Shown here: one piece after another, positions 3,499 through 49,415 of the stretch
Position numbering within the stretch: position 1 is the stretch's first letter
Layout: each line of letters begins with the position of its first letter
Assembly: GCA_001794755.1 (NCBI GenBank)
Contig: MGKT01000006.1
Span: forward strand, 40,700-104,699
Direction of reading: 5' to 3'
Source of the DNA: Candidatus Yanofskybacteria bacterium RIFCSPLOWO2_02_FULL_44_18
Lineage (GTDB): Bacteria > Patescibacteriota > Minisyncoccia > 2-02-FULL-40-12 > GWA2-44-9
Length of the DNA stretch: 64,000 nt
Notes under the pieces: model-generated
Told to the model about the DNA's origin: nothing
Databases searched by the model: none
Seen by the model: only the letters and a program-made list of their open reading frames with translations
Translations under genes and position numbers: made by a program

Positions 3499-3764
3499 GG
3501 CCGGGCCGGGTATTTGGATATGACATAGCGATAACCCTTACCGTCGGGTATTTTAATATCATTCTGCTTGACCCAGTCCCTGATTAACACCGACTCGGTC
3601 GCCGATATTCCTTTGACTTTTGCCTGGGTTGAATTCATTATGGAAATATCGGAGTTGAAATTTCTCATGGTGATAAATATGAGGCCTACGAAAAAAAGGG
3701 CCAGGCCGATTACAAATACGGAACCGACCCATGATTCGACTTCCATTGTCAGAAAATTTCTCAT
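3483..3764 (-). CDS. small single-pass membrane protein, function unknown
   Basis: 93-aa ORF with one hydrophobic helix (VFVIGLALFFVGLIFI). It overlaps both neighbours by 4 to 16 nt within the operon. Confidence 0.4.
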   Translation of the reverse strand: MRNFLTMEVESWVGSVFVIGLALFFVGLIFITMRNFNSDISIMNSTQAKVKGISATESVLIRDWVKQNDIKIPDGKGYRYVISKYPARPWLTQ

Positions 3765-4228
3765 CGCACGATTATGGCCCCCGTCTCATCTTGGTCTTTT
3801 TCATTGCGATATCCGAATGTGCCCTTGGCGGCAAAAGTATAAGAAAAATAGCTGCCGGGCGGGATGTCGCCGACGCTGTCGAATCCAACCAAATCTTCCG
3901 GCGGATCGGCTATTATGTGAATCGCGAACAGGCCGTCATTTTTGAAACGAACTGTATCCCCAGAGTGGATTCTTAAATTGGTGGGGCTAAACACTCCGGA
4001 TTTGTATGACACCGTGTATATTCTGGCTTGCTTTGAATCGCTGGGAGATTGGGTCGGCGAAATCGTGGCTTGGCCGATATCGTGTTCGGCCTGGCCGAAA
4101 ATTACGACCGCTGCGGCCATCAGCATCAGCGAGATTACGATTAAAAGCCAAAACATTCCCGGACCGTTTATGGGTTTGACTTTCGGCTCCCTTTTCACGA
4201 CTAATTGCGGCTCGATTTCATCACTCAT
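3761..4228 (-). CDS. membrane-anchored cupredoxin-like domain protein (no Cys ligand), function unknown
   Basis: 155 aa with an N-terminal TM helix and a C-terminal beta-rich region (RIHSGDTVRFKNDGLFAIHII) resembling a cupredoxin/plastocyanin-like fold, but without the copper-ligand Cys. Confidence 0.4.
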   Translation of the reverse strand: MSDEIEPQLVVKREPKVKPINGPGMFWLLIVISLMLMAAAVVIFGQAEHDIGQATISPTQSPSDSKQARIYTVSYKSGVFSPTNLRIHSGDTVRFKNDGLFAIHIIADPPEDLVGFDSVGDIPPGSYFSYTFAAKGTFGYRNEKDQDETGAIIVR

Positions 4229-5504
4229 TTTTCTTAATAAATTCTAGCACAATTTCTTTGTCTGACCAGGGGATTTTTTTGCCGCCGGCCACGGCCATCG
4301 ATATTTCCGAACCCTTGCCGGTAATCACAACCGTGTCGCCCGGCTCGGCCAAAGATATGGCCTTGCCAATCGCTTCTTTTCTGTCAATCAGTTTCCGGAA
4401 TTCTTTTCCTTTCAATCCCTGGCCAATCTGGCTGATAATGCTTTCCGGATTTTCCTCATAAGGATCCTCGTTCGTCAGGATAATCTCGTCCAGATATTCG
4501 GCGGCCGCTTCTCCGAATTCACTCCTTTTCCATTTGTCCCTGCCTCCGCCCGCCGCGCCCAAAACGCCGATGAGCTTTCCGCCGGCCAGCTGGGATTTTA
4601 AAGTATGATACACCTCTCTAAGTGAATCCGGCGTGTGCGCGTAATCGACGACAACCGCAAACGGCTGTTTTTGAATATATTCCATTCGCCCGGGTATGCT
4701 TCTGATTCCCGCGATTATCGGTTGCGAAGTCGGCAAATCTATACCGTACATGGCTACTGTCGACAGGGCGGCAAGACAATTTAATACATTGAATTTTCCG
4801 GACAAGTACGAGACAAATTCGGTTCCATAGACGATGAATGTCGTTTTTTCGGGCGATATTTGCACCTTTTCGGCCTTGATGTCGCCTCTTGAAATTCCGT
4901 AGAATACTTTTTTGCGGGCCGGATAATTCATAAAATCTTCTACGTGCATATCGTCGCCGTTTAAGACATGAATGTTTTTTGTGCGCTTGAATAATTCCTG
5001 TTTCGCTTTTTTATAATTGTCAAACGAGCCGTGGCTTTCGATATGTTCTTTGTGCAAGTTGGTGAAAACGGCGCAATCAAAATTTATTCCCAAATGCCTC
5101 CTTTGCTTTATGCCTTCCGAAGTCACTTCCAAGACGCAGAATTCGCAGCCGGCATCGCGGGCGCGAGCCATGAATTTATGAATCCGGAACCGGCCGGGCA
5201 TGGTCATCTTGAGGGTGTTAGGCCATTCTTTGTCAAGGATTTTAAATCCCAGAGAACCAATCGCCGCCACTTTTTTATTTCCAGCCTCTTCGAGAAGTTT
5301 AGAAATCATATAGACTGTTGTTGACTTGCCCTTCGTTCCTGTAACGCCGATGACTTTCATCGAATTAGACGGAAAACGATAATAAGCGGCGCCGGCATGG
5401 GACAATAATGCGTGATAATACGGAGCAAAAAAATTAAATACCCGTTTCGGGATTATCTTTTTTATCCTATATAATATTTTATCCACCCAGGATTCCGTAA
5501 TCAT
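4221..5504 (-). CDS. Mur ligase family protein (MurE/MurF-like UDP-MurNAc-peptide ligase)
   Basis: 427 aa with the ATP-binding motif GVTGTKGKST and Mur ligase middle and C-terminal domain motifs (DYAHTPDS). It lies immediately upstream of a FemAB-family gene. Confidence 0.7.
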   Translation of the reverse strand: MITESWVDKILYRIKKIIPKRVFNFFAPYYHALLSHAGAAYYRFPSNSMKVIGVTGTKGKSTTVYMISKLLEEAGNKKVAAIGSLGFKILDKEWPNTLKMTMPGRFRIHKFMARARDAGCEFCVLEVTSEGIKQRRHLGINFDCAVFTNLHKEHIESHGSFDNYKKAKQELFKRTKNIHVLNGDDMHVEDFMNYPARKKVFYGISRGDIKAEKVQISPEKTTFIVYGTEFVSYLSGKFNVLNCLAALSTVAMYGIDLPTSQPIIAGIRSIPGRMEYIQKQPFAVVVDYAHTPDSLREVYHTLKSQLAGGKLIGVLGAAGGGRDKWKRSEFGEAAAEYLDEIILTNEDPYEENPESIISQIGQGLKGKEFRKLIDRKEAIGKAISLAEPGDTVVITGKGSEISMAVAGGKKIPWSDKEIVLEFIKKNE

Positions 5505-6373
5505 TTGTTGTTTCTAAGTAATTTATAAACCAAGTACCAGAATTTTGAAACGGGCAAGTCAAAAGAGCCGGGATATTCAATTGTCTGCCCGCCCCAATTT
5601 AGCTTAAAACGGGTCACGCCCGGATACCTCTTTGCGTCAATCCCCCAAAAATCATAATTATTCAGGCCATATTTTTTTGCGACCTTGATTAGTTCCCAAT
5701 GTAAATAATAAGGAGCCATCATTGGTTTATATTTTGGATTTCTGTCCATGCCGCCGTGAAGATAGTACGCGGTATCGCCGTGAGCAAGCCAAATCGCGCC
5801 CGCGATTGGCACACCATCGTGTTCGACAAAAACCGTTTCCGCGTTCATTCCCGGCATAGTGCACAATTTTTCGTAATAGCTTTTCTCATGCGTGCTGAAA
5901 TTGTCATTTTTCGCGGTGTGTTTTAATAATTTCCAGAATCCATCCGTATCTTTGCGAAAAACCAATTTAAAATCATGTTTCTCCGCAACTTTAATATTGT
6001 ACCTTGTTTTATGATGCATCCGGCCAAGAAGCTCCTCCTCCGATTTGGTCAAGTCAATCACCACGGTTTTGGAAGGCTGTAGTTCCTTTTTTGATTTCTT
6101 AAAACCAAATTGACATAAAAGTTGAACCACAGAATCGTCTCGCGGCTCCGCTTTGACATAAAAAGATTTTTCAGCCGCCGCTAAATTTTTTAAATATTGA
6201 ATGAAATTTTGCGTCACGCCGCTCGGGCCATGAGGGATATACAAGTAATTTTTTCTAAACGGTAAATCGTGTCGTATAATATTAGCTTCAATCCCATCTT
6301 TCTCATATCGAAAAACTCTTCGGCCAAGAGATTTCTGAAAACTTAACCATTTTCCAGTCTGAAGAAAAGACAC
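5501..6373 (-). CDS. FemAB-family peptidyltransferase (aminoacyl-tRNA dependent peptidoglycan cross-bridge formation)
   Basis: 290 aa showing FemAB/FemX-like conservation (…AYYLHGGMDRNPKYKPMMAPYYLHWELIKVAKKYGLNNYDFWGI…). Overlaps the Mur ligase gene by 4 nt. Confidence 0.65.
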   Translation of the reverse strand: MSFLQTGKWLSFQKSLGRRVFRYEKDGIEANIIRHDLPFRKNYLYIPHGPSGVTQNFIQYLKNLAAAEKSFYVKAEPRDDSVVQLLCQFGFKKSKKELQPSKTVVIDLTKSEEELLGRMHHKTRYNIKVAEKHDFKLVFRKDTDGFWKLLKHTAKNDNFSTHEKSYYEKLCTMPGMNAETVFVEHDGVPIAGAIWLAHGDTAYYLHGGMDRNPKYKPMMAPYYLHWELIKVAKKYGLNNYDFWGIDAKRYPGVTRFKLNWGGQTIEYPGSFDLPVSKFWYLVYKLLRNNK

Positions 6374-6966
6374 TATTTTTTTCCTAAAAATTTTAATGCG
6401 TCGGCGACCTTTAATTCCAACGTCTCGCCCTTTGCTTCTTTTAGAGCTTCCTTGGCTTGGTTCAACGAATAGCCAAGAGTGAGTAGGGCTTCCATGGCTT
6501 GACCCTCATGACCCAGATCCATGCCACTAACGTCAGTTGAATCCAGATAGTCCACTTTGCTTTTGAGCTCTAAAATCAGGCGAGACGCCGTTTTCGGTCC
6601 GAGACCGGAAACTTTTTTTAGATAGTCAGAATCTTCATGGACCACAGCCGCTTTGAGATGCTTAGGTTCGACAACGGCCAAAATCCCCATCGCTCCTTTC
6701 GGCCCGATTCCGGAAACGGAAGTCAGCATATGAAACAAATCCAAATCTTCTTTTTTATCAAAGCCGTACATGTCAAAAGTGCCCTCGCGCATATTGAGCT
6801 GGGAATGGACAAAAAGCTTTATTTTTCCATTGACTTCAGGTTTGCTTTTTGATAAAATGTTCAGCAACTTGGGGGATACTATCACCCTATATCCTATGCC
6901 CCCAGTGTTCAAAATGACTTGTTTATCCCCTAAATGCTCGATTGTTCCCTCTATCAGACTAATCAT
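6373..6966 (-). CDS. ruvA: Holliday junction DNA helicase RuvA
   Basis: MISLIEGTIEH…GIGPKGAMGIL…VSGLGPKTASRLILELK (HhH motifs), with a C-terminal domain III. The start is taken at the internal Met (MISLIEG), 16 bp from the divergent uvrB. Confidence 0.85.
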   Translation of the reverse strand: MISLIEGTIEHLGDKQVILNTGGIGYRVIVSPKLLNILSKSKPEVNGKIKLFVHSQLNMREGTFDMYGFDKKEDLDLFHMLTSVSGIGPKGAMGILAVVEPKHLKAAVVHEDSDYLKKVSGLGPKTASRLILELKSKVDYLDSTDVSGMDLGHEGQAMEALLTLGYSLNQAKEALKEAKGETLELKVADALKFLGKK

Positions 6967-6982
6967 ACCCAAAGAATAACAA

Positions 6983-8992
6983 ATGTTTAAACTCGCGTCC
7001 AAATTCCAACCAACGGGTGATCAGCCGGAAGCGATAGATAAGCTGGTCAAAGGATTAAAATCAGGCAAAAAGCACCAAGTTCTTTTAGGTGTTACTGGAA
7101 GTGGAAAAACTTTTAGCATGGCGAAGGTCATCGAGGCGTACAAGAGACCAACTTTGATTGTTTCCCACAACAAAACATTAGCCGCCCAATTATACAAAGA
7201 ATTCAAGTCGTTCTTTCCCAAGAATGCCGTTCATTATTTCGTTTCGTATTATGATTATTACCAGCCCGAAGCGTATATTCCCCACACTGACACATATATA
7301 GAAAAGGATTCGAAGATTAATGAGGAGATAGACCGCTTGCGTCATGCCGCAACCCAAGCCCTAATGAACCGGGACGACGTAATAATAATCGCCTCGGTAT
7401 CATGCATATATAATCTGGGTTCGCCTGAGGATTATAAAAACCTGGGGCTGGAAATTTTCGAAGGAAAAAAAATAAATCCATCGGATCTGGTCAGAAGCCT
7501 GATGCGTCTTCAATATACCGCTGATATAGAATTAAAGAGAGGAGCCTTCCGTAAAACTGCCAATGAAATTGAGATTGTGTCTTCCAACGGCCAAGACGCA
7601 TATAAAATCACGTTTAAAAACGACGAGGTCGCCAAGATGTACCGCGCCGACGTAAAGGATCCAGAAGACCTTGAATTTAAAGATATGCAATACGAACGCG
7701 TCGTTAGCGCCGTTATTTTCCCGGCTAAGTATTGGATTGCGTCCGACGACAAAATATCCTTGGCAATTGAAAACATAAAAAGCGAGCTCCAAAAGCACGT
7801 CAAACATTTAAAAAAAATTGGCAAACTGGAAGAAGCGTTCAGACTCCAAGAAAAAACGATTCAGGATATAGAAATGATGCGCCAGACCGGCTACTGCCAT
7901 GGAATCGAAAACTACTCACGTCATCTTGATTTCCGAAAAGCCGGCCAACCGCCATATACCCTTCTGGATTTCTTCAGTTCAAAAGGCGAATTTTTGTCCA
8001 TAATCGATGAATCGCACATCACGATTCCCCAGCTTCGAAGCATGTATAACGGAGACCATTCCCGAAAATCAACTTTGATTGAATACGGCTTTAGGCTCCC
8101 CTCGGCGATAGACAACCGCCCTCTCAAGTTTCCGGAATTTACCACGAGGGTCCGGAAGCAAATATATGTATCGGCCACGCCCGGAAAATATGAAATGGAA
8201 AAAGCAGGAGAAAAAAACATCGCCGAGCAGGTTGTCCGGCCGACTGGCCTTCTTGATCCGACAATTGAAATCCAGCCGACGGAAAATCAAATCCCCCATT
8301 TGCTGAAAAATATCCAAGAAAGGGTAAGCAGCGGAGAGAGGGTTCTAGTAACGACCCTGACTAAAAGAATGGCCGAGGACTTGAGCGAACACCTTGCTGA
8401 TAAAGGCGTTAAAGTTAATTACCTTCACTCGGAAATTAAAACTCTGGACCGCTTAAAAATTCTAAAAGACCTGCGCCTGGGCAAACACGATGTAATCGTC
8501 GGCGTAAATCTTCTGCGTGAAGGCCTCGATCTCCCGGAAGTTTCGCTCATTGCCATTCTCGACGCGGACAAGGAAGGATTTCTGCGCAATACGACGACGC
8601 TGATTCAAACAATGGGCCGGGCCGCAAGGCACGTAAACGGCCACGTAATCATGTACGCCGACAAGCTTACCAAATCCATCGACTCGTCAATAAAGGAAAC
8701 CTTAAGGCGACGGAAGAAGCAGGAAAAATACAACACGGACAACAAGATTACGCCGACGACGATATTAAAGGACATCGGAGATTTCGATTTGCCGATATCA
8801 AAATCCGCGATGGGCAAACTGGGAAATACAAGCAGAGGCGGCGATAATGACTCGGGTATTGTCTTTTTTGGAGACGCAAACAAACAAAACGTTCTAAAAC
8901 AACTTAATAGGCTTATGGAAAAAGCCATGCGCCACTTTGATTACGAGAGGGCCATGGAAATAAAAGAGCAAATCAGGCGCATGAAGGAATAA
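6983..8992 (+). CDS. uvrB: excinuclease ABC subunit B (UvrB)
   Basis: 669 aa beginning MFKLASKFQPTGDQPEAIDKLVKGL with Walker A GVTGSGKTF, a helicase C domain, and the C-terminal UvrB/UvrC interaction helix (YERAMEIKEQIRRMKE). Confidence 0.95.
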   Translation: MFKLASKFQPTGDQPEAIDKLVKGLKSGKKHQVLLGVTGSGKTFSMAKVIEAYKRPTLIVSHNKTLAAQLYKEFKSFFPKNAVHYFVSYYDYYQPEAYIPHTDTYIEKDSKINEEIDRLRHAATQALMNRDDVIIIASVSCIYNLGSPEDYKNLGLEIFEGKKINPSDLVRSLMRLQYTADIELKRGAFRKTANEIEIVSSNGQDAYKITFKNDEVAKMYRADVKDPEDLEFKDMQYERVVSAVIFPAKYWIASDDKISLAIENIKSELQKHVKHLKKIGKLEEAFRLQEKTIQDIEMMRQTGYCHGIENYSRHLDFRKAGQPPYTLLDFFSSKGEFLSIIDESHITIPQLRSMYNGDHSRKSTLIEYGFRLPSAIDNRPLKFPEFTTRVRKQIYVSATPGKYEMEKAGEKNIAEQVVRPTGLLDPTIEIQPTENQIPHLLKNIQERVSSGERVLVTTLTKRMAEDLSEHLADKGVKVNYLHSEIKTLDRLKILKDLRLGKHDVIVGVNLLREGLDLPEVSLIAILDADKEGFLRNTTTLIQTMGRAARHVNGHVIMYADKLTKSIDSSIKETLRRRKKQEKYNTDNKITPTTILKDIGDFDLPISKSAMGKLGNTSRGGDNDSGIVFFGDANKQNVLKQLNRLMEKAMRHFDYERAMEIKEQIRRMKE

Positions 8993-14297: not shown

Positions 14298-14344
14298 TAA
14301 CTAATATTACCAACAAAAATCCGCTCGTTCAAGCGGATATCTAT

Positions 14345-15370
14345 CTAAATGTCTATCAAGGCGTGGTCAAGAGTTCTATCGATTTTCGACATAAGTTCGA
14401 AAAGCTTATGTTTCACGTCCATGTAATCTGAAGGGCTCATTTCCGGTTTGAAGGGGCTACGTTGATGAGGCAAATCCACCAAAATAGACGCCGTCAATCT
14501 TTCGAGAAGATTTAGGGTAATGCACTCGGCCAGCCACGCTTCGGCGAAATAATTACTGCCGGCATTCACAAAGCCTCGCAGCCATCTCAAGCAATGGAAA
14601 AGAAGGGTATCGGCATCAAATTTATCAACCAGATGTAAAACATCATTCCAAATCCAGGCCGCGGGCGGATAAATCGGCCCTCTCTCCACAATCGGCGAGT
14701 TTAGAACATAATAATAATGACTCGAGAATCTGATGTCAGTGTTACCGAAATGGGCGAAAAAGTAAGATGGGACCATCATCGGCTGTCCGGCTTTTTCGAT
14801 TATCCGGTCGCGATATCTGGACAATGTTCTCAACTCATCAGGCGATAATGTCTCGGGTTTGCCCTCTGCGCCGAACCATTTATCAAATCTCTGTCTGAAA
14901 TAATCCGGCGCTGATAACTGCGGCGGTTTAAAATCCTTAAACACAAAATACGTCCGCCAGTAAATCAGCGTGACTTTGGCTATCTCTTCATCGGAAGGCC
15001 GCGCGATTTCTCTGACTGGAGAGATGTTGCTTTCCAATTTCTTGTGAATGACGTAGTCAAAAGCCTGACTATTAAATCTGGTCCCGCCGGCCCGTAAAAC
15101 AGTGGGCGCTCGCAATGCCAGCGATACGTTTTGAGTCTGTCTTATTTTCTCGTACTTCTGCCAGTCAGCCGCCGAATCAAATAAATTAACATCGGCTTCT
15201 CCGGCCACAATTAGAGTAGCGGGATGTCCTCTGTACCGGCCGTGCTTGATAATTTCTCTAAGCTGGCCCTGACCCAGACGCACTTGCCAGCCGGGATTGG
15301 AATTATCTTCCTCAAAATCGGTCGCTGAAATTACCACATTGTACCCTTCTAGCAAATCTTGAGTTTTCAT
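14345..15370 (-). CDS. hypothetical protein (341 aa), no recognisable domain
   Basis: Long ORF with coding-like composition and no motif I can assign. It borders the tRNA-Lys island. Confidence 0.4.
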   Translation of the reverse strand: MKTQDLLEGYNVVISATDFEEDNSNPGWQVRLGQGQLREIIKHGRYRGHPATLIVAGEADVNLFDSAADWQKYEKIRQTQNVSLALRAPTVLRAGGTRFNSQAFDYVIHKKLESNISPVREIARPSDEEIAKVTLIYWRTYFVFKDFKPPQLSAPDYFRQRFDKWFGAEGKPETLSPDELRTLSRYRDRIIEKAGQPMMVPSYFFAHFGNTDIRFSSHYYYVLNSPIVERGPIYPPAAWIWNDVLHLVDKFDADTLLFHCLRWLRGFVNAGSNYFAEAWLAECITLNLLERLTASILVDLPHQRSPFKPEMSPSDYMDVKHKLFELMSKIDRTLDHALIDI

Positions 15371-15482
15371 GTTTCTCCATTCTAAAACAACTGGCGATGA
15401 TAGTAAACAACATTTTCCTCCTTGTCAATATTTAAAAATAATCGGATAGGAAATATAATCCCTGAAGTACATGGGTGGGATT

Positions 15483-15743
15483 ATGAACGACTGGCGCAGA
15501 AGAGAATTGGAAATAATTAAAAATAGATTGCGTCTTGATGGCCATCCGTCACTGGCGGCCATTGAAGCGGAAATTTCAAACATCAGCTACGGCCCGCCGT
15601 TAGACCAAGTCGAGGTAGATATCCTAAAGCACATCCGTATGCTTATCGAAACTTATAGAGCATTGAGGATAAGAAGTAACTGGCAAAACCTGACTGAAGG
15701 CGACAAACAAATGCTCAAAGAATTCCACATTGCCGCCCATTAG
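15483..15743 (+). CDS. hypothetical small protein (86 aa)
   Basis: ORF MNDWRRRELEIIKNRL… preceded by GGTGGGATT (SD-like) and an upstream TATAAT. It is followed by a clean terminator. Confidence 0.4.
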   Translation: MNDWRRRELEIIKNRLRLDGHPSLAAIEAEISNISYGPPLDQVEVDILKHIRMLIETYRALRIRSNWQNLTEGDKQMLKEFHIAAH

Positions 15744-15764
15744 ACCCTAAAGGGTCTTTTTTCG
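15744..15764 (+). terminator. intrinsic terminator of the small + strand ORF
   Basis: GACCCTAAAGGGTC hairpin followed by TTTTTT, directly after the TAG stop. Confidence 0.65.
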
Positions 15765-15844
15765 CCTTTCTCGTCCGGCAGACAACTCCGTTGTCCGCCC
15801 TGCAGGACTCGGTCACGGATAATTTGCTCGTCAGTCACTCGCAA
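15763..15844. repeat. att-like direct repeat copy 3: X arm + tRNA-Lys 3'-end core + Y arm
   Basis: cgcctttctcgtccggcagacaac(t)c(c)gttg + TCCGCCCTGCAGGACTCG + gtcacggataatttgctcgtcagtcactcgcaa. The core is identical to the tRNA-Lys 3' end (19800-19817). The X arm is identical (2 mismatches) to the sequence flanking the tRNA (19769-19799), and the Y arm is identical to 19685-19717. Confidence 0.75.
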
Positions 15845-15853
15845 TGAGAACCG

Positions 15854-15883
15854 AGCCCAGCGTTAATCACGCTGGGCTTTTTG
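15854..15883 (+). terminator. hairpin (9-bp stem) + T-tract overlapping the stop codon of the PEP-utilizing gene; terminator-like on the + strand
   Basis: AGCCCAGCG-TTAATCA-CGCTGGGCT followed by TTTTG. The minus-strand gene's TAA stop sits in the loop. Confidence 0.45.
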
Positions 15884-18800
15884 AATGATGTGAACTACTC
15901 CTTTATTTCCATCTACTTCTACAATGTCCCCGTCTTTAATGAGGTCAGTAGCATTTCCAGTTCCTACTACACAGGGGATGTTCATTTCTCGACTCACGAT
16001 AGCGGCGTGAGACATCATGCCTCCTTGATTGGTAACAATTGCAGAAGCTTTTGAGCAAACGGGCATAAGCTCTGGCGAAGTAGTTTCTGCTATAAGAATA
16101 TCTCCGTTCACCATACTTTCCATTATCTTTTTCAGCCCATCAAAATTTCCATAATCAGCAATAATAACCTTTGCCATGCCTCTAACTTTTCCCTTATTGG
16201 CTGTTTTACCTTTAATTTCAGAGTGGAATTCGGGGGTAACAGTGTCAAATTTAGATACGATTACTTCCGCTTCTTTTCCATTTATATAAGTAAGATTCTC
16301 CCCATCACCAATCATTACATATGCACACTTTCTATCTTCTAAAATTGATGTTGAGACTTTTTGGTTTTCAAACAAATTAAGTAAATCACTCCTACTGTAA
16401 AGCATCAAAGAGTCCACTTCTACTCTAAATTGCTTTTGGAGTATGCTTAATATGGAAAAAAGAGCACTTTCGCTACCAAAGAATAATTTATTAAGATATT
16501 CACGTCCCGAATTTTTGATGCGCTCAAAATGCTTTAGATTCTCACTAGTTATTTCATCATTAAGTGAATACTGGTAAGCATCATCTGTAGCAAAGAACTC
16601 TGTTCTTCGATAAAAATGAAAGAGAGTTGACAAATTGATTAAAAACTCTTCCAAGTCTGCTCTAGTCAGCCTATCCTTTTTAGAGATTTTCTCAAAGTGT
16701 TCTGCTGTCTTCTTTTTATATGCTTCAAAACCATTACTATACTCATCAAATTTTTCCTTACTGCTGTATAGTTCTACCCCTTCTATTAGCGTATCTTTTA
16801 TAGATTGTTTTGGTAGATAAGTAGTCCAGATTCCATGTGCCAACATAGAAAACCCTTTAATCTTTTTGTATTCAGTCATAAAGATATCCGAAATGATATA
16901 AGGCATTCCCCCTACTTGGAAAAGTCTCTGATAATAATTGGGATCTTTAATGCCTAGATTATTTTCAATTATCTTTATAACACCAGTATCCGCATTCACT
17001 TCCACTAAGTCTCCATCCTTGAGTACTTTTGTTGCAATTTTTGTTCCTATAATGCAGGGTTTTCCCATCTCTCTTGCTGTAATGGCGGCGTGACTAGTGA
17101 CACCTCCTTCGTCAGTGACAAAAGCTGATGCTTTCTTCATGGCTGGTAAGAAGTCTGGGTTTGTCATCGGAGTCACCATAATGTCGCCTTCGTTTACTCT
17201 ATTGATATCAGTTTTAGTTAAGACTATTACCACTTTTCCTTTTGAGATTCCCTTATGAGCAACATTACCCCTTATCTCATTTGTTCCACTTATAACCTCA
17301 TCTTTTTCAATTTCAATACCAAGTTCTCGTTCGACCTGGATTAATGTCCTGTTATAGTAAAATTTATGGTCGTGAAAGATAAAATGTTCATCTCGTTTTC
17401 TCAACTCGTCTACAGTCGGTAACATACCTAAAATCTCATTGATGCTTAAAATCTTGGAGAAAGGAATTGCATAATCGGGGACAATCATCGGTATTGCTTT
17501 TTCAAATGTGGCGTTGGCATTGTAAAAGAAGTCTTCTGTTGATTTTCTTTGCTCTAGGCAGGCTTCTTTAGCTTTTGATGGCGCATCTTCAATTGCAGGC
17601 ACAAAATATATTATTGCGAATAAACTTTGAGTTCTGGCAAGCTTTTCGAAGAAAACTTCAAGGTTTTTCTTATTGGGTTTACTCAACAGCTGGCTTTCAA
17701 GCTTTTTTATTTCCTTTAATGCTTTCTGATAATTTTCAGTGATTTCTTCTACCCAGCCACTTCTAGCCAATTTTTTCTTAATAGCTTTAGTGGCATCAGC
17801 AAAAATCTTCTCATCTTCATATACTGTAAGCATTCCATTCGCTCGCTCGTAGACCAGTCTATCTGTAGTAACTCCTATCCAATTTTCAAGATATTCCGTA
17901 TCGCTTTTCTCCCAAAATTCGATAGCTGCTACGCATACATCTCTACTAACATTTTTTTTAAATAATGATTTCTTTTCACTGAACTCACCAATTATAGATA
18001 AATCTTCATCGATTAAGATATTATTTTCTTCTTGGAATTTCTCTAGATCTTTCCCAGTCGTTATATTCCCTTCAAAGAAAATAAAGAAGTCGTTTCGATT
18101 ATCAAGAGTTTCTTTATTTGGGATTTTATTGGAAAGCAATTCCTTAATTGATATGACATTTGCGTATTCCGCCAAATCAGGATATTGAAATTTAATTGCT
18201 CCAATTAGGGCATCTCCATGTTCATACTCGCCTGCCTGTGAGAGTTCTCTTAATTTGTAAGATTTTTCTATAATCGCTTTTGGAAGTTCCTTATTTGTGC
18301 TATTCCCAAATTGAACTATCACAGGCAAAAATCCCCAAAAATCCACGGAAGTTTTGTAAAAATCTTTTATATTTGTGTTTCGATAATTTATAGCAAATTG
18401 ATGCAGTTTCTTATAATCTTCCTCAAACTTTTTAGCTAAAGGTCTAAATTTGTCAGGATTATTTATAAAGAAATCAAAAAGCGGCTTAATGGCGGTATCC
18501 GGATTGTTGATGTCGTAGTAAACACTTGTATTGCCATCACTCGTTTTTATAAATAATGGATTAAATCTAGTTGAACCTTGTAGGAGTTTATTGAAAGCAT
18601 CATATTCGCCCTCCCACCAGTATTCCATAGTTACGAGGGAGAGCTTCCTGGTAAAGAATTTTTTGAAATGTCTTATGGGAGTTTTATTGGAAAGAGTGGT
18701 AATAGGTCTGCTCTGAGTTATGTAAAATTTACCATCCTCATATGCCCACTCAATATCACAAGGAAATCCGTAATGGTTTTCAATCTTAATTACAAGGTCA

Positions 18801-19630
18801 GCTAATTCCATAATCTGCGACACATTTAACACCTGTGATGAAGCTTTTGGCTCTGGTATTTCCTTCCACTCATTTTCTCCCCTTCTCGATTTATACAGAC
18901 CTCTCCTTTGAGTATTTACTGTTGTATCAATTATTTGTCTCGACTCCTTTTCAACAACATAAGAGTCGGGAGTTATAGAACCAGATACAATAGCCTCCCC
19001 AAGCCCAAAGCCAGCTTCGATGATGAGTTGATTTCTATCCTCCGTAATTGGATGGACCGAAAACGCTATTCCAGATACTTCCGACTGAACCATTTTCTGC
19101 ACCACAACGGCTACGGAAATACCCGTGCCGTGAAGTTCTTTTTCGAAGCGATAAAAGATTGCTCTGGGAGTAAAGAGAGAAGACCAGCATTTCTTAACTT
19201 TATCGAGTAAGTCATCTTCCGTGGTATTTAAATAACTCTCTAACTGACCTGCCCAGGCATGCTCCGCTCCGTCCTCTGCTGTGGCAGATGAGCGAACGGC
19301 CACAAACTCCGCCCGGAGTGCCTTAGATGCCCTTAAAATCTCGTCAGAAATGTCTTGCGGCAATTCTTCATTCTCAATTAGCCCTCGTATCTTTTCGGAA
19401 GCGCCCTCTACGGTGTGTATTGCTTTGTGGTCTACAGTCTTGAGTATCGCCTCAATTTCTTGAGCTAAATCTGTTTCGTGTAAAAATCGGTCAAAGGTTC
19501 CAGAGAGCACAACAAAACCATCTGGCACAGGAAGTCCTGCTTGTGTCATCTCACCAAGAGATGAACCTTTACCACCAGCGAGAAGTGAGTCGGTCTTCTT
19601 TATTTCATTAAAATTTTTAATCAGTTCCAT
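15863..19630 (-). CDS. PEP-utilizing enzyme family giant protein: PPDK-N (ATP-grasp nucleotide-binding) domain + two phosphohistidine swivel domains, no PEP/pyruvate TIM barrel (rifampin-phosphotransferase-like architecture, duplicated His domain)
   Basis: 1255 aa. The N-terminal ~310 aa match the PEP synthase/PPDK ATP-binding domain (…VAVRSSATAEDG…, …CDIEWAYEDGKFYITQSRPIT). Two PEP-utilizing 'mobile' domains carry the catalytic His motifs GGVTSHAAITAREMGKPCIIG (~aa 830) and GGMMSHAAIVSREMNIPCVVG (~aa 1200). An SD-like AAGGGATT precedes the ATG. AT content is higher than that of neighbouring genes. Confidence 0.8.
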   Translation of the reverse strand: MELIKNFNEIKKTDSLLAGGKGSSLGEMTQAGLPVPDGFVVLSGTFDRFLHETDLAQEIEAILKTVDHKAIHTVEGASEKIRGLIENEELPQDISDEILRASKALRAEFVAVRSSATAEDGAEHAWAGQLESYLNTTEDDLLDKVKKCWSSLFTPRAIFYRFEKELHGTGISVAVVVQKMVQSEVSGIAFSVHPITEDRNQLIIEAGFGLGEAIVSGSITPDSYVVEKESRQIIDTTVNTQRRGLYKSRRGENEWKEIPEPKASSQVLNVSQIMELADLVIKIENHYGFPCDIEWAYEDGKFYITQSRPITTLSNKTPIRHFKKFFTRKLSLVTMEYWWEGEYDAFNKLLQGSTRFNPLFIKTSDGNTSVYYDINNPDTAIKPLFDFFINNPDKFRPLAKKFEEDYKKLHQFAINYRNTNIKDFYKTSVDFWGFLPVIVQFGNSTNKELPKAIIEKSYKLRELSQAGEYEHGDALIGAIKFQYPDLAEYANVISIKELLSNKIPNKETLDNRNDFFIFFEGNITTGKDLEKFQEENNILIDEDLSIIGEFSEKKSLFKKNVSRDVCVAAIEFWEKSDTEYLENWIGVTTDRLVYERANGMLTVYEDEKIFADATKAIKKKLARSGWVEEITENYQKALKEIKKLESQLLSKPNKKNLEVFFEKLARTQSLFAIIYFVPAIEDAPSKAKEACLEQRKSTEDFFYNANATFEKAIPMIVPDYAIPFSKILSINEILGMLPTVDELRKRDEHFIFHDHKFYYNRTLIQVERELGIEIEKDEVISGTNEIRGNVAHKGISKGKVVIVLTKTDINRVNEGDIMVTPMTNPDFLPAMKKASAFVTDEGGVTSHAAITAREMGKPCIIGTKIATKVLKDGDLVEVNADTGVIKIIENNLGIKDPNYYQRLFQVGGMPYIISDIFMTEYKKIKGFSMLAHGIWTTYLPKQSIKDTLIEGVELYSSKEKFDEYSNGFEAYKKKTAEHFEKISKKDRLTRADLEEFLINLSTLFHFYRRTEFFATDDAYQYSLNDEITSENLKHFERIKNSGREYLNKLFFGSESALFSILSILQKQFRVEVDSLMLYSRSDLLNLFENQKVSTSILEDRKCAYVMIGDGENLTYINGKEAEVIVSKFDTVTPEFHSEIKGKTANKGKVRGMAKVIIADYGNFDGLKKIMESMVNGDILIAETTSPELMPVCSKASAIVTNQGGMMSHAAIVSREMNIPCVVGTGNATDLIKDGDIVEVDGNKGVVHIIQKAQRD

Positions 19631-19663
19631 AATCCCTTATCATCGACGTTAGCGACCCTATGT

Positions 19664-19717
19664 TTGTCCGCCCTGCAGGACTCGGTCACGGATAATTTGC
19701 TCGTCAGTCACTCGCAA
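19664..19717. repeat. att-like direct repeat copy 2: tRNA-Lys 3'-end core + Y arm
   Basis: TTGTCCGCCCTGCAGGACTCG + gtcacggataatttgctcgtcagtcactcgcaa, identical to 15791-15844. Confidence 0.75.
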
Positions 19718-19740
19718 ATTTCCTTGACCACGGCTCGCGG

Positions 19741-19760
19741 TTGCAATCTGCTGATTGCAA
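19741..19760. repeat. perfect palindrome TTGCAATC-TGCTG-ATTGCAA in the spacer between att copies
   Basis: 7-bp inverted arms (TTGCAAT/ATTGCAA) around a 6-nt centre. It is the only palindrome in the 50-bp spacer between repeat copies 1 and 2. Confidence 0.5.
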
Positions 19761-19799
19761 CATCGCTCCGCCTTTCTCGTCCGGCAGACAACTTCGTTG

Positions 19800-19872
19800 T
19801 CCGCCCTGCAGGACTCGAACCTGCGACCCTCTGCTTAAAAGGCAGGTGCTCTACCAACTGAGCTAAGGGCGG
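19800..19872 (-). tRNA. tRNA-Lys (anticodon UUU)
   Basis: Minus-strand sequence CCGCCCT-TA-GCTC-AGTTGGTA-GAGC-A-CCTGC-CTTTTAA-GCAGA-GGGTC-GCAGG-TTCGAGT-CCTGC-AGGGCGG-A. The acceptor stem (7 bp), D arm, anticodon arm and T arm all form. The anticodon loop CU-UUU-AA has U33 and A37. CCA is not encoded. Confidence 0.85.
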
Positions 19873-19903
19873 AATATTTATGAAATCATACCACATAATG
19901 GAC

Positions 19904-19937
19904 TGAAAACCAACAAAAAGGCACCTTGTTAGGTGCT
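19904..19937 (-). terminator. intrinsic terminator of the 289-aa gene, upstream of tRNA-Lys
   Basis: On the minus strand GCACC-TAACAA-GGTGC is followed by CTTTTTGTTGGTTTT. Confidence 0.55.
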
Positions 19938-20807
19938 TTACGACAAAAGAATCGCCCGCCTTGCTTCCCTGATTAATTCATCGTTTATAACTTTTTGGCA
20001 TTGCGGCGCTTCTGCAAAGTTCTTAGCCCGTTCTTGCTCATACCGCTTTTCCTCGTTTCTAAAATCGTTCAGTAAATCAAGATAATGATAATACTTCGCA
20101 ACACGCTCTGAGGTATCGCGATGCAACAGAACAAGTGTGATTTTATCTTCCTCATTAGTCCATTTTACGCCTACGTCACCCCTAACAATTCCTGCATGAG
20201 GAAGGGTGAACCTATTCTTGAATTCATTGTTGAATGCCTCTTCCTCCCTTTCTTCCTCCATATTCGATGCCGGAACGACTACTTGGCTATGGTGAAGGTA
20301 ATAATAATAATACCCATTATGAACTTGAGAATAAGAACCGGGATTTGACCGGATGTCGCATCGTGAGATAAAATCTGCCCATTTTAAAACACTGTCGAAA
20401 AATGGCTTCAAGGCATTAGGCAATGAATCCAGAGATAATTGTTGGCCGAGACATATTATCAATGACTGACTGCTGGTTTTTTGCTCAAGTATGGGCCGAA
20501 GCTCATTTAGAATCCTATCCAGAATATCCGGCCTTCTAGTACACGCGATCCGAAATCTTTTATCTGTCATTCTGCATCTTAGACGAAAGCGAATCGCTTT
20601 TAAACCTGTTCCAACATGCCAAGTAATCCATATCACTGATTCATATATTTTACCTTTAATAAATGATTCAATGTCGATTGTGTACGCATCTTCAATGGGC
20701 GGAATCACTGGACAGGCTTCCAAGATATCAATGGATGGGATTTCACCATTTACACCTTGAGCATCATACCTTCTTCTCCAGCCGTATGTTATGGGAACAC
20801 TACACAT
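19938..20807 (-). CDS. hypothetical protein (289 aa), no recognisable domain
   Basis: Long ORF that includes an acidic stretch (MEEEREEEAF) and a Tyr run (HNGYYYYYLHH). It sits between the HD hydrolase and tRNA-Lys. Confidence 0.4.
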   Translation of the reverse strand: MCSVPITYGWRRRYDAQGVNGEIPSIDILEACPVIPPIEDAYTIDIESFIKGKIYESVIWITWHVGTGLKAIRFRLRCRMTDKRFRIACTRRPDILDRILNELRPILEQKTSSQSLIICLGQQLSLDSLPNALKPFFDSVLKWADFISRCDIRSNPGSYSQVHNGYYYYYLHHSQVVVPASNMEEEREEEAFNNEFKNRFTLPHAGIVRGDVGVKWTNEEDKITLVLLHRDTSERVAKYYHYLDLLNDFRNEEKRYEQERAKNFAEAPQCQKVINDELIREARRAILLS

Positions 20808-20877
20808 ATACTCCTCTCAATGAACTAGGGATTATATCTCACAATATATGCAAAACGTCAAGGCGGTGGGACAATGA

Positions 20878-22128
20878 TTATTTTTTAAGCACTGACATTA
20901 TCTTGTCGGCATTTTCAAATATTAAATTCCTGTCGCCGATGATGCAGACCCTTACCGCAAGATAGTCTTCGAGTTCTGATTTCATGGACTCAAAATATTC
21001 CTTATGGGTTTTTTTCAGCGACATAACTTCGCCGTTATCGTGGTATACAATATCCTGCGGTTCAAATCGCCAAGGATTGAGAATCGGCACAATCACAATC
21101 TTGAAGGAATCAGCGCCGATAATTTTCGAAATTTGGCTCTCCAATTTTTCCAGATTCGCCGGTGAATTTCTTTTTGCGAATTTCTCAAAAAAATTAACAT
21201 CTTCGCCGACTACTTTGATATTTTTCCCGGCAATTCTTTCTCTTATCCTTCGGCTTTTCAATCTCACCACAAGCCCTGTCCGGGGCAGATTTCTTTCAAC
21301 CAGGGCTTGATATTGCCAGCGAAGAACGGCATCTTCGCTTAAAAATATTCTGGCCATAATCTGATGGTCGTTCATTTTCCAAAGATCAGGCGGTTTTATT
21401 TTTTCCTTCAGAATCAGTCTGGCAATTATTTTTTGCATGAATCTCTGCGAAATCAGAGTGGATTTATGCAGATACACTTCCTTGTACATATAGATATACA
21501 GTCTTTGGATTTGTTTTGCCGCTTCCAACGCTTTTTTATCAATGACCATATTGCCGTCCATAAAAGTAGAATAATCCAATATTGTTTCGACATCCGGCCT
21601 CTGGCCGAAACCGGTATGATATGTGTCCCGCTCAAGATAATCGAGCTTATCCGTGCCGATATTTCTGTCCATTACAATCCGATAAAGGCTATTCTTGCGA
21701 TTAAATAGTGTCAGAATAAAATTATAATCCCCGCCTGATTTTGTAATCGCTGTTTTTAGAGACTTGATGATTCTGGCCCCGTTTTTGTCGTGATCATACG
21801 GAGTTAATTCCTCGATAACATGGGAAAACGGGCCGTGGCCGATGTCATGAAGCAGACCGAAAAGAGAGATATTCAACGCTTCTTTATGGTTGAGAATATA
21901 ATCCGTAATCAGGCGCTGGCAAAAATTCCTAGTTTTATGATAAACGCCCAAAGCATGCTCAAACCGGTTATGGGTCGCGCCGGGGAAAACGCTCAAAGTC
22001 GTGCCCAGCTGGCCGACATGCAAAAGCCGCTGAAATAGCGGATGATTTATTATCGGTAATATGTTCCTGACGTCGATGCTTACTCCCGGCGGTATTCGAA
22101 TATACTTCTTGTAGTGTCCGGACTCCAT
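20878..22128 (-). CDS. HD-domain dNTP triphosphohydrolase-like protein (Dgt/SAMHD1 family)
   Basis: 416 aa with the motifs …HNRFEHALGVYH…, LLHDIGHGPFSH and …DKLDYLERDTYHTG…, which are diagnostic of the dGTPase/SAMHD1 HD subfamily. Confidence 0.75.
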   Translation of the reverse strand: MESGHYKKYIRIPPGVSIDVRNILPIINHPLFQRLLHVGQLGTTLSVFPGATHNRFEHALGVYHKTRNFCQRLITDYILNHKEALNISLFGLLHDIGHGPFSHVIEELTPYDHDKNGARIIKSLKTAITKSGGDYNFILTLFNRKNSLYRIVMDRNIGTDKLDYLERDTYHTGFGQRPDVETILDYSTFMDGNMVIDKKALEAAKQIQRLYIYMYKEVYLHKSTLISQRFMQKIIARLILKEKIKPPDLWKMNDHQIMARIFLSEDAVLRWQYQALVERNLPRTGLVVRLKSRRIRERIAGKNIKVVGEDVNFFEKFAKRNSPANLEKLESQISKIIGADSFKIVIVPILNPWRFEPQDIVYHDNGEVMSLKKTHKEYFESMKSELEDYLAVRVCIIGDRNLIFENADKIMSVLKK

Positions 22129-22171: not shown

Positions 22172-23740
22172 CTACTCTTTTTTCTTCAAAGCATCCTGAA
22201 GCAGTTTTCTCAATTCATCGGTATTGGTTTCCTTTTTCTCTTTGTCCTTCTGGCTTTTTTCAACCCGGCGGCCTTTAAAATCAACGGCCCCTCTGTTTAA
22301 GTCTCGCAATGAGGCGGACCTGGAGCCGACATTGGCTTCTTGTATTCGGCTGCGGCGGTCGGCATCCCTGGCCGGTGGACGCATCGGGGCCGGCGGGCGG
22401 ATCGGACTTCTCTGGGGCGTAAACTGCCTTTCTCTTTCCATATTTTCTTGGGCCACCCATCCCATCCAGTCCGCAGTATGTTTTTCGACAATTTCTTTCG
22501 GCGTCGTAAACTGTTCGCGCGATGCGGAGACAATTTCTTTTTTGAAATTTACTTCCGGTTTCGGAAACGGCGGCAATGTCCCGGCTGAAAACGGCTTAGA
22601 GGAGATACCATCAATCATCAGTCTTAAATATATGTTGTATTTTCCCAAATTGACCAAATCCGTCATTGTAAAATCAGGTTCATACCATCTTTCCAGAAAT
22701 TCGGCGTCCTCCGCTCCGACGCGGAATGTGACTAAAGTGCCGACGTTGCCGAATACGGCATCTCTGACGACTTCTTCCATTTGAGTAATATACTGATGGC
22801 CCAGCGTCAGGCATAAATGGTATTTTCTGGCCTCGGATAATATGTTTACGAACGATTCGGTGGCAAAATTTTGAAACTCATCGACATAGAGATAAAAATC
22901 AGGCCGCTGATTTTCAGGCACATCAACGCGCGACATGGCTGCTAGCTGTAGTTTAGTAATCAAAAGCGCTCCCAAAAGACGCGAAGCATCCTCGCCAATT
23001 TCGCCTTTTGACACGTTTACAATTAATATCTTGCCCTCATCCATAATCTTGCGCATGTCGATTTTTGAACGCGGCTGGCCGATGATATTCCTGATAACGT
23101 TGTTGGAACTGAATTGGCCAACCTTATTTTGAATCGCGGCTGTGGCTTCGGTCGCAAACTTATCCGCATATTTCGCGAATTCATCAATCCAGAAACCTTT
23201 GACAATCGGGTCTTTGATGTTGGATACGACCTCTTTTCGATATTCCTTGTTGGAAAGCATCCGGTTGATGCCGAGAATGGTGGAATTGGGATACTCAAGC
23301 AAGGCCAGTATCGTGTTATTTAAAATATATTCCATTCGGCCCGACCAGGCATCCACCCATATTTTCTTGAAAACACCCAGAAGACCGCTGGCCACGAGAT
23401 GGCGATATTCAAAAGGGACTTTCTCCATGACGTTGAACGCGATTGGAAAATCAAGGTCATTGGGTTGGAAATATATAACGTCTTTGATTCTCTCTTCTGG
23501 CACGAAATCAAGAAGGTCAATCGCTGCGTCTCCGTGAGGATCAATAAAGGCAACGCCGCGTCCGGCTTCGATGTCCTGTATGGCCATGTTCTTCATGAGC
23601 TCAGATTTGCCCATACCGGTCGAGCCGATAACGTAAACGTGGCGGCGGCGGTCATCCGGTTTTACGCCAAATCGAACTTTCTTGTTCCGAAAATTTGTCT
23701 CTCCCAAAAATACGATATCTCTTTCGTCTGTTTGTCTCAT
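22172..23740 (-). CDS. VirD4/TraD/TraG-like type IV secretion coupling-protein ATPase homologue (T4SS DNA-transfer domain)
   Basis: 522 aa with Walker A VIGSTGMGKSE, …FIDPHGD…, Walker B-like …LYVDEFQNF…, and a long charged, disordered C-tail. Confidence 0.65.
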   Translation of the reverse strand: MRQTDERDIVFLGETNFRNKKVRFGVKPDDRRRHVYVIGSTGMGKSELMKNMAIQDIEAGRGVAFIDPHGDAAIDLLDFVPEERIKDVIYFQPNDLDFPIAFNVMEKVPFEYRHLVASGLLGVFKKIWVDAWSGRMEYILNNTILALLEYPNSTILGINRMLSNKEYRKEVVSNIKDPIVKGFWIDEFAKYADKFATEATAAIQNKVGQFSSNNVIRNIIGQPRSKIDMRKIMDEGKILIVNVSKGEIGEDASRLLGALLITKLQLAAMSRVDVPENQRPDFYLYVDEFQNFATESFVNILSEARKYHLCLTLGHQYITQMEEVVRDAVFGNVGTLVTFRVGAEDAEFLERWYEPDFTMTDLVNLGKYNIYLRLMIDGISSKPFSAGTLPPFPKPEVNFKKEIVSASREQFTTPKEIVEKHTADWMGWVAQENMERERQFTPQRSPIRPPAPMRPPARDADRRSRIQEANVGSRSASLRDLNRGAVDFKGRRVEKSQKDKEKKETNTDELRKLLQDALKKKE

Positions 23741-43706: not shown

Positions 43707-44039
43707 ATGAACCGAACCGCCATGATCTTCTCTTCGTTAACGTTATTTTTGATTTTGATGGGCTGTGGACCAGTCGCCACAGGAGATTCTATACTGGAAC
43801 GCAAAACAGCAGTTATATTAGAAAAACACATGACAGTAACAAACGATTTCTTTGATGGCACTCGGAAATACTGCCAACTTCTTTTGGAAACAGAGGATAA
43901 AAAGAGAATTTCCATTTCTGGCTTATGGACACTCGGAGCGGCTCCATATGATCTGTGTCAATATATGCGAGAAGGCGAAAAAGTTCAGATTGTTCGATAT
44001 AAAGAACATGGCTGGTATTTAGCAGACGCAAGAGACTAA
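43707..44039 (+). CDS. small lipoprotein (lipobox LMGC), function unknown
   Basis: MNRTAMIFSSLTLFLILMGCGP… fits a signal peptidase II lipobox. SD AAGGAG lies 9 nt upstream. The ORF-track start at 43641 is probably too early. Confidence 0.5.
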   Translation: MNRTAMIFSSLTLFLILMGCGPVATGDSILERKTAVILEKHMTVTNDFFDGTRKYCQLLLETEDKKRISISGLWTLGAAPYDLCQYMREGEKVQIVRYKEHGWYLADARD

Positions 44040-44053
44040 CCAGCTCTGCCTAA

Positions 44054-44103
44054 CACTTTGCAGAACTCGCAAAAACGAGACTAACTGCAAAGTGTTTTAT
44101 TTT
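44054..44103 (+). terminator. intrinsic terminator after the lipoprotein gene
   Basis: CACTTTGCAG-(21-nt loop)-CTGCAAAGTG followed by TTTTATTTT. Confidence 0.55.
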
Positions 44104-44108
44104 GATCC

Positions 44109-45383: not shown

Positions 45384-45427
45384 AAAGACCTACTATATTA
45401 CACAAAGCTAACAAGTAATTCAAGGAA

Positions 45428-46201: not shown

Positions 46202-46343
46202 AATAAAAAATTCCTATATTATTAAAACCTACAACCAATATTAGCATGGCTAATAAATAAAAAAAGCACATTAGGTATCCTTTACAAAAGCCCTAATATC
46301 TGATATACTTTAAACCAAAGTTGGACAATTTAGACACATACTC

Positions 46344-48125: not shown

Positions 48126-48126
48126 T

Positions 48127-48585: not shown

Positions 48586-48591
48586 CCAACA

Positions 48592-49410: not shown

Positions 49411-49415
49411 GTAGA

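Follow-up and report, generated by a model that had tools for sequence, protein, structure and literature searches.

What might be the function of a giant protein of the phosphoenolpyruvate (PEP)-utilising family that possesses an ATP-binding head and two phosphohistidine domains, whilst the barrel that defines PEP synthase (PpsA) and PPDK is missing? This question is raised by a gene on the reverse strand of contig MGKT01000006.1 (GCA_001794755.1) from Candidatus Yanofskybacteria bacterium RIFCSPLOWO2_02_FULL_44_18 (Patescibacteriota), of which a stretch of 64,000 nt, here called the window, served as reference sequence. The gene is an uninterrupted open reading frame (ORF) of 1255 codons in a single reading frame (Table 1). 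Analysis of its product confirmed that it belongs to the PEP-utilising family and has an intact, N-terminal ATP-grasp domain (the head, A), two phosphohistidine swivel domains (S1 and S2) and no TIM barrel, and revealed three cassettes (X1a, X1b and X2) between these domains, giving the order A-X1-X1-S-X2-S. With confidence slightly above even, we lean towards an ATP-dependent dikinase on the plan of rifampin phosphotransferase (RPH) that has become multi-headed: each pair of cassette and swivel would be an autonomous acceptor module, and the modules would work in parallel.

Head, swivels and cassettes

The PPDK_N model (PF01326) matches residues 17–318 with an E-value of 2.4e-95 (320 bits, cut-off 27), which bears out the ATP-binding head proposed in the first-pass annotation of this DNA, and the head can be aligned to the ATP-grasp domains of PpsA (8a8e) and RPH (5fbs). 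Lys21 (in the GGKG motif) and Arg113 (in VAVRSSATAED) are invariant in the family alignment and are the equivalents of RPH Lys22 and Arg117. The PEP-utilizers model (PF00391) finds two stretches (E 2.1e-54), the best of them at residues 1175–1244, and the two predicted swivel domains with their motifs are indeed present: the phosphocarrier of S1 is His847 in GGVTSHAA (residues 842–849; codon 17090–17092) and that of S2 is His1208 in GGMMSHAA (residues 1203–1210; codon 16007–16009). The Pfam domain order is hence PPDK_N followed by two PEP-utilizers stretches, with PEP-utilizers_C absent. The reported lack of a TIM barrel held at every level: PF02896 gave zero matches in the query even at E ≤ 1 and is listed for none of the 120 best homologues in their precomputed Pfam annotation, and no (beta/alpha)8 barrel was seen in AlphaFold (AF2) models of residues 319–1255, in which the cassettes are alpha/beta and helical. 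A divergent barrel in the inter-domain regions was thus sought both by hidden Markov model (HMM) and by fold, and was not found. Elsewhere in the window there are no further homologues of A, X1a, X2 or S2 (swivel).

Comparison with named families gave a consistent picture. The NCBIfam models for PpsA, RPH, PigC/RedH and the PRK06241 ‘PEP synthase-like’ proteins all match via the ATP-grasp and swivel parts only, and all remain below their cut-offs: the PpsA models, which return the lowest E-values, (TIGR01418, NF005057) score 537.8 bits against 598 and 514.1 against 739.75, and the RPH models score 392.8 against 999 (NF041857) and 284.2 against 1700 (NF000283). Sequence matches in the PDB (PpsA 8a8e and 9dae; RPH 5fbs and 5hv1) are confined to the same two parts.

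The intervening regions had been described as uncharacterised stretches of about 480 and 290 residues. Both are present, but their composition proved to be different when we applied family HMMs, which had been built iteratively from segments of the query and from its 120 best homologues in the database: the first consists of two tandem cassettes of ~220 residues, X1a and X1b, and the second of one ~229-residue cassette, X2, with short linkers. X1a retains the family-conserved residues Arg461, Glu497 and Arg512, and the conserved Arg695, Glu732 and Arg746 of X1b represent the invariant columns R134/E171/R185 of alignment A2; in X2 the conserved residues are Lys1039 and Arg1043 (KNxGR), Asp1016 (TEFFxTD) and Arg1100. 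By HHalign X1 and X2 are remote homologues (probability 96.9%, E 1.9e-10). X1a has no swivel of its own, and the query thus has three cassettes for two swivels. No Pfam model matched X1 or X2, and sequence-profile searches of the PDB with X1 or X2 alone returned chance-level matches only (E ≥ 0.09).

A relationship to RPH emerged only from the fold search and from a profile combining X2 with its swivel, not from the cassettes alone. The AF2 model of X2-S2 (input: 31 module sequences) has a predicted local distance difference test score (pLDDT) of 94.5 and a predicted template modelling score (pTM) of 0.90, and its top PDB matches in Foldseek are the RPH-Lm structures 5fbu and 5fbt (E 5e-12, ~400 columns). 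The RPH rifampin-binding domain is the sole PDB structure matched beyond the swivel, in an alignment that spans 289 residues with the swivel included. Since RPH ranks first, cassette and swivel superpose jointly on the rifampin-binding domain with its docked swivel; the predicted structure of X2-S2 is thus that of the RPH acceptor-domain fold docked on a swivel, and its secondary structure would fit arm 1 and the apex of RPH only. In the AF2 model of residues 319–1255 (pLDDT 89.2, pTM 0.58) the three cassettes display the same secondary-structure order, a PDB match past the swivel is once more confined to RPH, and no barrel enzyme is found among the top matches. Positions 154–356 of the X2-S profile align with RPH residues 674–866, which means that the homology extends ~90 residues into the cassette. 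This alignment starts just after the K..GR motif of the cassette (Lys1039, Arg1043) and adjoins RPH Arg666/Glu667/Lys670, which bind the transferred phosphate (PMC4844700). In the X1 cassettes the equivalent arginine is invariant, including Arg461 and Arg695 of the query. The likeness to RPH extends to fold and domain order, but not to size, the number of cassettes and swivels, or HMM cut-offs.

Modular relatives and the proposed mode of action

The architecture of the query is one of many. In all of the 120 best database homologues (700–2150 residues), a single N-terminal ATP-grasp domain is followed by X-S units, A-(X-S)n with n up to at least 5, and the cassettes in these units are X1, X2 or members of at least one longer type (~370–390 residues), in many different orders. 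The catalytic histidine is kept in 313 of the 313 swivels of this sample. The longer type (~390 residues; residues 315–812 of homologue P0060, used as a single-sequence query) gave swivel matches only in the PDB. Where sources are named they are Patescibacteria (Zambryskibacteria, Paceibacterota, Parcubacteria) and one Woesearchaeota archaeon, and the database labels, where given, read ‘phosphoenolpyruvate synthase’. The suggestion that two phosphohistidines on one polypeptide are an undescribed arrangement holds in so far as we found no paper on it; as a feature of this protein it is not unique, being the rule across the homologues.

Cassette and swivel are inherited as one unit, as judged from the alignments: swivels that follow X1 carry GGxTCH in 91 of 110 cases and those that follow X2 carry GGxxSH in 113 of 116 (Fisher p 5e-41), and when each of 226 swivels is compared with its nearest neighbour from a different protein, the type of the upstream cassette agrees in 218 cases. 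The two swivels of the query are only 44% identical to each other, whilst S1 is 68–72% identical to X1-linked and S2 70–86% identical to X2-linked swivels of other proteins. Hence two old module classes have been combined in this gene with no in-gene duplication, and the duplicated substrate/His module that had been envisaged must be given up.

When 1.84 billion representative proteins were searched exhaustively with the X2 HMM, only 653 clusters were retrieved, 435 of them at E ≤ 1e-10, and in 76 of the 133 newly retrieved X2-bearing cluster representatives X2-S is a stand-alone protein (median length 365 residues). A census of loci by X2-S alignment search, which is a sample and gives lower bounds for all locus counts, revealed every intermediate between split and fused. 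The closest relative of the query (P0002, 70% identity) is an A-X1-X1-S protein whose gene is followed by a separate X2-S gene of 363 codons, 47% identical to X2-S2 of the query; we thus propose that X2-S2, usually a separate protein of ~360 residues, has here been fused onto an A-X1-X1-S core. Other loci combine giant family genes with extra stand-alone modules on their flanks (L084, L086) or form operon-like arrays, with a separate ATP-grasp gene and several X-S genes or with at least seven consecutive X-S genes (L093, L102, L103, L124, L130, L159); the split format with separate ATP-grasp gene is found in L087, L102, L103 and L124. Runs of X-S genes extend over positions 1–9068 of L093, 6111–15438 of L102, which also contains a separate ATP-grasp gene, and 2063–12228 of L159. 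There must be more cassette classes, since some array swivels are preceded by cassettes outside the X1 and X2 models. Amongst full-length relatives the best one, P0003 (44% identity, 1990 residues), has the order A-X1-X1-S-X2-S-X2-S-X1-S. On its contig (L085) it is flanked by genes for archaeal TFIIB, tRNA-intron endonuclease and ribosomal protein S8e, and these archaeal surroundings imply exchange between Patescibacteria and DPANN archaea. Within the superfamily of RPH-like dikinases without a barrel, the query represents a distinct branch with several modules.

In swivelling-domain dikinases (PPDK, PpsA and RPH), one mobile phosphohistidine domain shuttles between two active sites. For a multi-headed dikinase, the ATP-grasp head would bind ATP and phosphorylate the histidine of a mobile swivel: as is the case in RPH, PpsA and PPDK, the beta-phosphate would go to histidine and the gamma-phosphate to water, with AMP and Pi released. 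S1 (His847) would then dock on X1b and possibly on X1a too, S2 (His1208) on X2, each just upstream, and the swivel would hand its phosphate to a hydroxyl of an acceptor held in the cassette. Each X-S pair would have its own acceptor specificity, and S2 would be charged by the N-terminal head, either in cis or within an oligomer. The overall chemistry, ATP → AMP + Pi + phospho-acceptor via phosphohistidine, is the one we infer from these relatives, and by analogy the most likely acceptors are small molecules that offer a phenolic, enolic or alcoholic hydroxyl group: the substrate of phenylphosphate synthase is phenol and those of PigC are prodiginine precursors, HpeHI phosphorylates hydroxyphenylethanones (PMC12167813) and RPH phosphorylates rifampin (PMC4844700). 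HpeHI comprises an ATP-grasp subunit and a subunit with RPH-like acceptor domain and swivel, the latter alone catalysing phosphotransfer between acceptors (PMC12167813), and may serve as a biochemical precedent for the split format working in trans. Operation in parallel rather than in series is suggested by four features of the family: the histidines are all conserved, cassette and swivel are co-inherited, modules stand alone, and arrays lie beside one ATP-grasp gene.

Several points weigh against a multi-headed dikinase of this kind. For every family member, chemistry and acceptors rest on homology. X1a lacks its own swivel, and a strict rule of one cassette to one swivel thus fails. The equivalence of cassette and RPH catalytic residues is an extrapolation from the sequence alignment, not from coordinates, and is good to about one position; the placement of the modules in the model of residues 319–1255 has low confidence, as its pTM indicates, so that the reach of S2 to the head in cis is not fixed. 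In length, the cassettes reach about half of the rifampin-binding domain of RPH (229 against 428 residues), and the genes for a low-molecular-weight phosphatase (LMWPc) that stand beside family genes at six or more loci also fit a regulatory or protein-directed role.

Four other explanations have to be weighed against it. One, named in the first-pass annotation and in our view unlikely, is a serial phosphorelay, in which phosphate would pass from the ATP-grasp head to His847 and on to His1208, and the last module alone would phosphorylate the acceptor or the steps would gate each other. In the phosphotransferase system (PTS) phosphate passes from histidine to histidine, from Enzyme I to HPr, and this precedent, together with the presence of at least two phosphohistidine domains on one chain and the distance in sequence between S2 and the head, speaks for a relay. 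Structural echoes of PTS components have also been described for RPH (PMC4844700). Such a relay is difficult to reconcile with the inheritance of each swivel together with its own upstream cassette, with X-S units that mostly stand alone or form arrays of at least seven beside a single ATP-grasp gene, or with the free variation in module order and number, all of which fit interchangeable parallel units better. A similarly low probability is given to a regulatory or protein-directed kinase, whose swivel histidines would autophosphorylate, whose cassettes would bind proteins or effectors and whose action LMWPc would reverse: the PPDK-derived VadK of M. tuberculosis is a reported autophosphorylating regulatory kinase (PMC13400623), and LMWPc genes with the motif CxGNTCRS adjoin family genes at L084, L086, L087, L088, L091 and L115. 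However, the cassettes agree with the small-molecule site of RPH in fold and in their conserved basic residues, the characterised barrel-less relatives (RPH and HpeHI, as well as phenylphosphate synthase and PigC) use small molecules, and the window contains no LMWPc gene.

Considerably less probable still is a true rifamycin-inactivating phosphotransferase, that is to say an antibiotic resistance gene. RPH is the best structural match and the islet that carries the gene appears to have been horizontally acquired, but the scores against both RPH models fall far below their cut-offs, the cassettes alone have no PDB sequence match, and a single cassette is much shorter than the rifampin-binding domain, as the lengths given above indicate. 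The least probable explanation, which we hold for scarcely credible, is a housekeeping PpsA/PPDK variant or a decaying pseudogene: whilst PpsA models give the best NCBIfam E-values, the scores stay under the PpsA cut-offs, the PEP/pyruvate barrel is missing by HMM and by fold, and the genomic context of the relatives is not conserved, so that orthology to a housekeeping PpsA in a conserved context was not found; decay is at odds with the intact reading frame and the conservation of all catalytic residues. As far as sequence and fold can tell, both identities are refuted.

The tRNA-Lys islet and the neighbours of related genes

The gene lies directly downstream of a tRNA-Lys gene and between two nested pairs of direct repeats (Table 1). 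The 54-nt repeat consists of a 33-nt arm that is not tRNA sequence and the last 21 nt of tRNA-Lys, and the 49-nt repeat of the tRNA-Lys 3′ end and 28 nt of its downstream flank; the downstream copies of the two overlap by the 21-nt core, and the nesting of the pairs means that this tRNA core is present three times. As judged from their sequence, the repeats are of the kind that recombination into a tRNA gene leaves behind. This could have been a single insertion of 4.0 kb that contained an internal repeat, or the arrival of a 3.87-kb unit at an older scar. The repeat-bounded segment contains no recombinase gene, and the gene is its sole cargo, as had been stated.

Horizontal acquisition of the islet, likewise proposed at the outset, is well supported by the tRNA-derived repeats, by base composition, by comparison with a syntenic genome and by the neighbours of family genes elsewhere. 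The GC content at third codon positions (GC3) of the gene is 0.328, compared with 0.458 ± 0.061 for 25 other genes of the window and 0.38–0.51 for its immediate neighbours. Several genes in the right-hand third of the window (44000–64000) have an equally low GC3, e.g. 0.328 for 46344–48125 and 0.350 for 54502–55848; a low GC3 thus does not by itself set the islet apart, and that part of the window might be foreign in its own right. L051 is the closest syntenic genome, and between its HD-domain gene and its class II aminoacyl-tRNA synthetase (aaRS) gene (3286–7180) lie tRNA-Lys and small unrelated ORFs, with no family member. Relative to L051 and L053, the orientation of tRNA-Lys is inverted in the window. 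Three further ORFs of the window, 19938–20807 (289 aa), 15471–15743 (90 aa) and 14345–15370 (341 aa), have neither a Pfam match nor an L051 homologue, and the whole interval (14298–20877) looks like a variable hot spot.

An independent ENA assembly (contig k141_340137, L003) contains the same islet structure and is 99.86% identical over 11,986 nt. Its contig ends inside tRNA-Lys, at position 19848 of the window, which may be due to differences between strains in the region upstream of the islet. The neighbouring genes (class II aaRS, DD-carboxypeptidase, MraY-like and FtsW) have their best relatives in Patescibacteria, with up to 77% identity. Upstream of tRNA-Lys, a TrwB/VirD4-like coupling-protein ATPase (22172–23740) and an HD-domain protein (20878–22128) are encoded; their pairing is kept in L051 (75% and 59% identity), which places them in the core neighbourhood and not in the islet. 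PADLOC defence-system models gave no match, and a phage collection yielded partial PpsA/RPH-like matches only.

Amongst the relatives, the closest full-length ones stand in unrelated contexts without conserved operon partners. At the loci listed, the only recurrent neighbours are LMWPc genes, further X-S genes and serine recombinases, and all three are missing from the window. LMWPc genes (~143 aa) adjoin family genes at no fewer than six distinct loci: at five they are convergent and lie 27–50 nt downstream of the family gene, and in L115 the gene is found just upstream on the same strand. Aryl phosphates are typical substrates of the hydrolases of this class. Products of the aryl or phenol type would fit the linkage, protein targets would fit it equally well, and the LMWPc enzymes may act on the products of these putative dikinases. 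Genes for large serine recombinases (Resolvase, Recombinase and Zn_ribbon_recom) adjoin family genes at three distinct loci or more, which suggests that family genes travel on integrative elements. In L092 the family gene immediately follows tRNA-Gly; tRNA-derived repeats were not found around the relatives in L091 or L092.

Table 1. Features of the query gene, its islet and the loci of relatives; positions refer to the window unless a locus is named.
Feature	Position	Strand	Basis and remarks
Whole ORF, 1255 aa, A-X1-X1-S-X2-S	15863..19630	-	ORF list and translation, Pfam, family-HMM domain map
ATP-grasp (PPDK_N) nucleotide-binding head, aa 3-314	18689..19624	-	Pfam PF01326, PDB alignment
Cassette X1a, aa 322-540, acceptor-binding type (predicted)	18011..18667	-	family HMM E 9e-63, AF2 model
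Cassette X1b, aa 557-775	17306..17962	-	family HMM E 4.6e-58, AF2 model
Swivel S1, aa 785-889	16964..17278	-	PF00391, family HMM, motif
Cassette X2, aa 900-1128	16247..16933	-	family HMM E 7.8e-82, AF2 model
Swivel S2, aa 1138-1250	15881..16219	-	PF00391, family HMM, motif
tRNA-Lys (UUU), directly upstream of gene	19799..19872	-	ARAGORN
54-nt direct repeat, upstream copy	19664..19717	.	repeat search, family D1, 100% identity, spacing 3873 nt
54-nt direct repeat, downstream copy, 18 nt past stop codon	15791..15844	.	family D1
49-nt repeat, upstream copy	19769..19817	.	family D2, 98% identity, spacing 4006 nt
49-nt repeat, downstream copy, displaced tRNA 3′ end and flank	15763..15811	.	family D2
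LMWPc gene	L084 12398-12841		Pfam LMWPc; convergent
LMWPc gene	L086 10440-10910		Pfam LMWPc; convergent
LMWPc gene	L087 2787-3218		Pfam LMWPc; convergent
LMWPc gene	L088 8072-8503		Pfam LMWPc; convergent
LMWPc gene	L091 7492-7905		Pfam LMWPc; convergent
LMWPc gene	L115 5647-6279		Pfam LMWPc
Serine recombinase gene	L088 3452-4873		also L089, L090
Serine recombinase gene	L091 3668-4570		
Serine recombinase gene	L103 2083-3111		

Significance and comparison with known systems

The architecture of the protein is unconventional whilst its chemistry is probably conventional, and the main interest lies at the level of the family rather than of the single gene. In the literature on multi-swivel phosphohistidine proteins, module arrays or dikinases of the candidate phyla radiation (CPR) we found no description of such a system. 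More tentatively than for the multi-headed dikinase, and well short of holding it for likely, we can imagine a combinatorial phosphotransfer platform in Patescibacteria and DPANN archaea: one ATP-grasp charger, fused or separate, would serve a variable set of plug-in X-S modules, which are shuffled, fused or split and spread by horizontal transfer, at times with serine recombinases or at tRNA sites. Such a platform would amount to a counterpart of the PTS that runs on ATP, or to a kinase ‘Swiss-army knife’, and the query would be a freshly acquired version with three cassettes. If this were true, ultra-small symbionts could phosphorylate many scavenged or toxic host metabolites via a single energy-coupling domain. 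CPR and DPANN genomes are of ~1 Mb and encode few kinases; that such small genomes keep and exchange family genes of 3–6 kb indicates that the function is important, and it probably has to do with the host or the environment (salvage, detoxification or resistance, for example). For enzymology, the family raises the question of how several carriers, in 2 to at least 5 modules, fused or arrayed, share one charging site. For annotation, hundreds of these proteins are wrongly labelled ‘phosphoenolpyruvate synthase’, and their cassette domain is without a Pfam model.

Compared with known systems, the protein shares with PpsA and PPDK a homologous ATP-grasp domain and swivel (Pfam 2e-95 and 2e-54) and presumably the dikinase chemistry, but it lacks the TIM barrel that defines those enzymes and has extra cassettes and a second swivel. 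Enzyme I and HPr of the PTS resemble it in a homologous swivel and in the principle that one charging component serves many substrate-specific ones; the PTS, however, uses PEP and not ATP, has a separate HPr and EII and is coupled to transport, and those parts are absent here. PigC/RedH and the PRK06241-type proteins likewise combine ATP-grasp, central domain and swivel, and their NCBIfam models reach E-values of 1e-107 to 1e-135 over the ATP-grasp and swivel parts, yet with 358–451 bits against cut-offs of 866–1350, and they are single-module proteins.

The two-component dikinases, HpeHI and the phenylphosphate synthase PpsAB, come close to the split loci of the family, in that a separate ATP-grasp protein charges a subunit with acceptor domain and swivel. 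In the query, by contrast, the parts are fused on one polypeptide, and where the two-component systems have one acceptor subunit per ATP-grasp, the family has at least 6–7 paralogous X-S genes per locus or at least five fused modules. Its cassettes are also smaller, and its hosts are Patescibacteria and DPANN archaea rather than degraders of aromatic compounds. RPH-Lm (5FBS/5FBT/5FBU, 5HV1) offers the same succession of ATP-grasp, acceptor domain and C-terminal swivel, likewise without a TIM barrel, and is homologous in sequence from residue 674 to its C-terminus. In RPH the rifampin-binding domain comprises 428 residues in three subdomains (PMC4844700). The query lies far under the RPH HMM cut-offs, and where RPH has one such acceptor domain and one swivel, the query has three cassettes of ~220–230 residues and two swivels.

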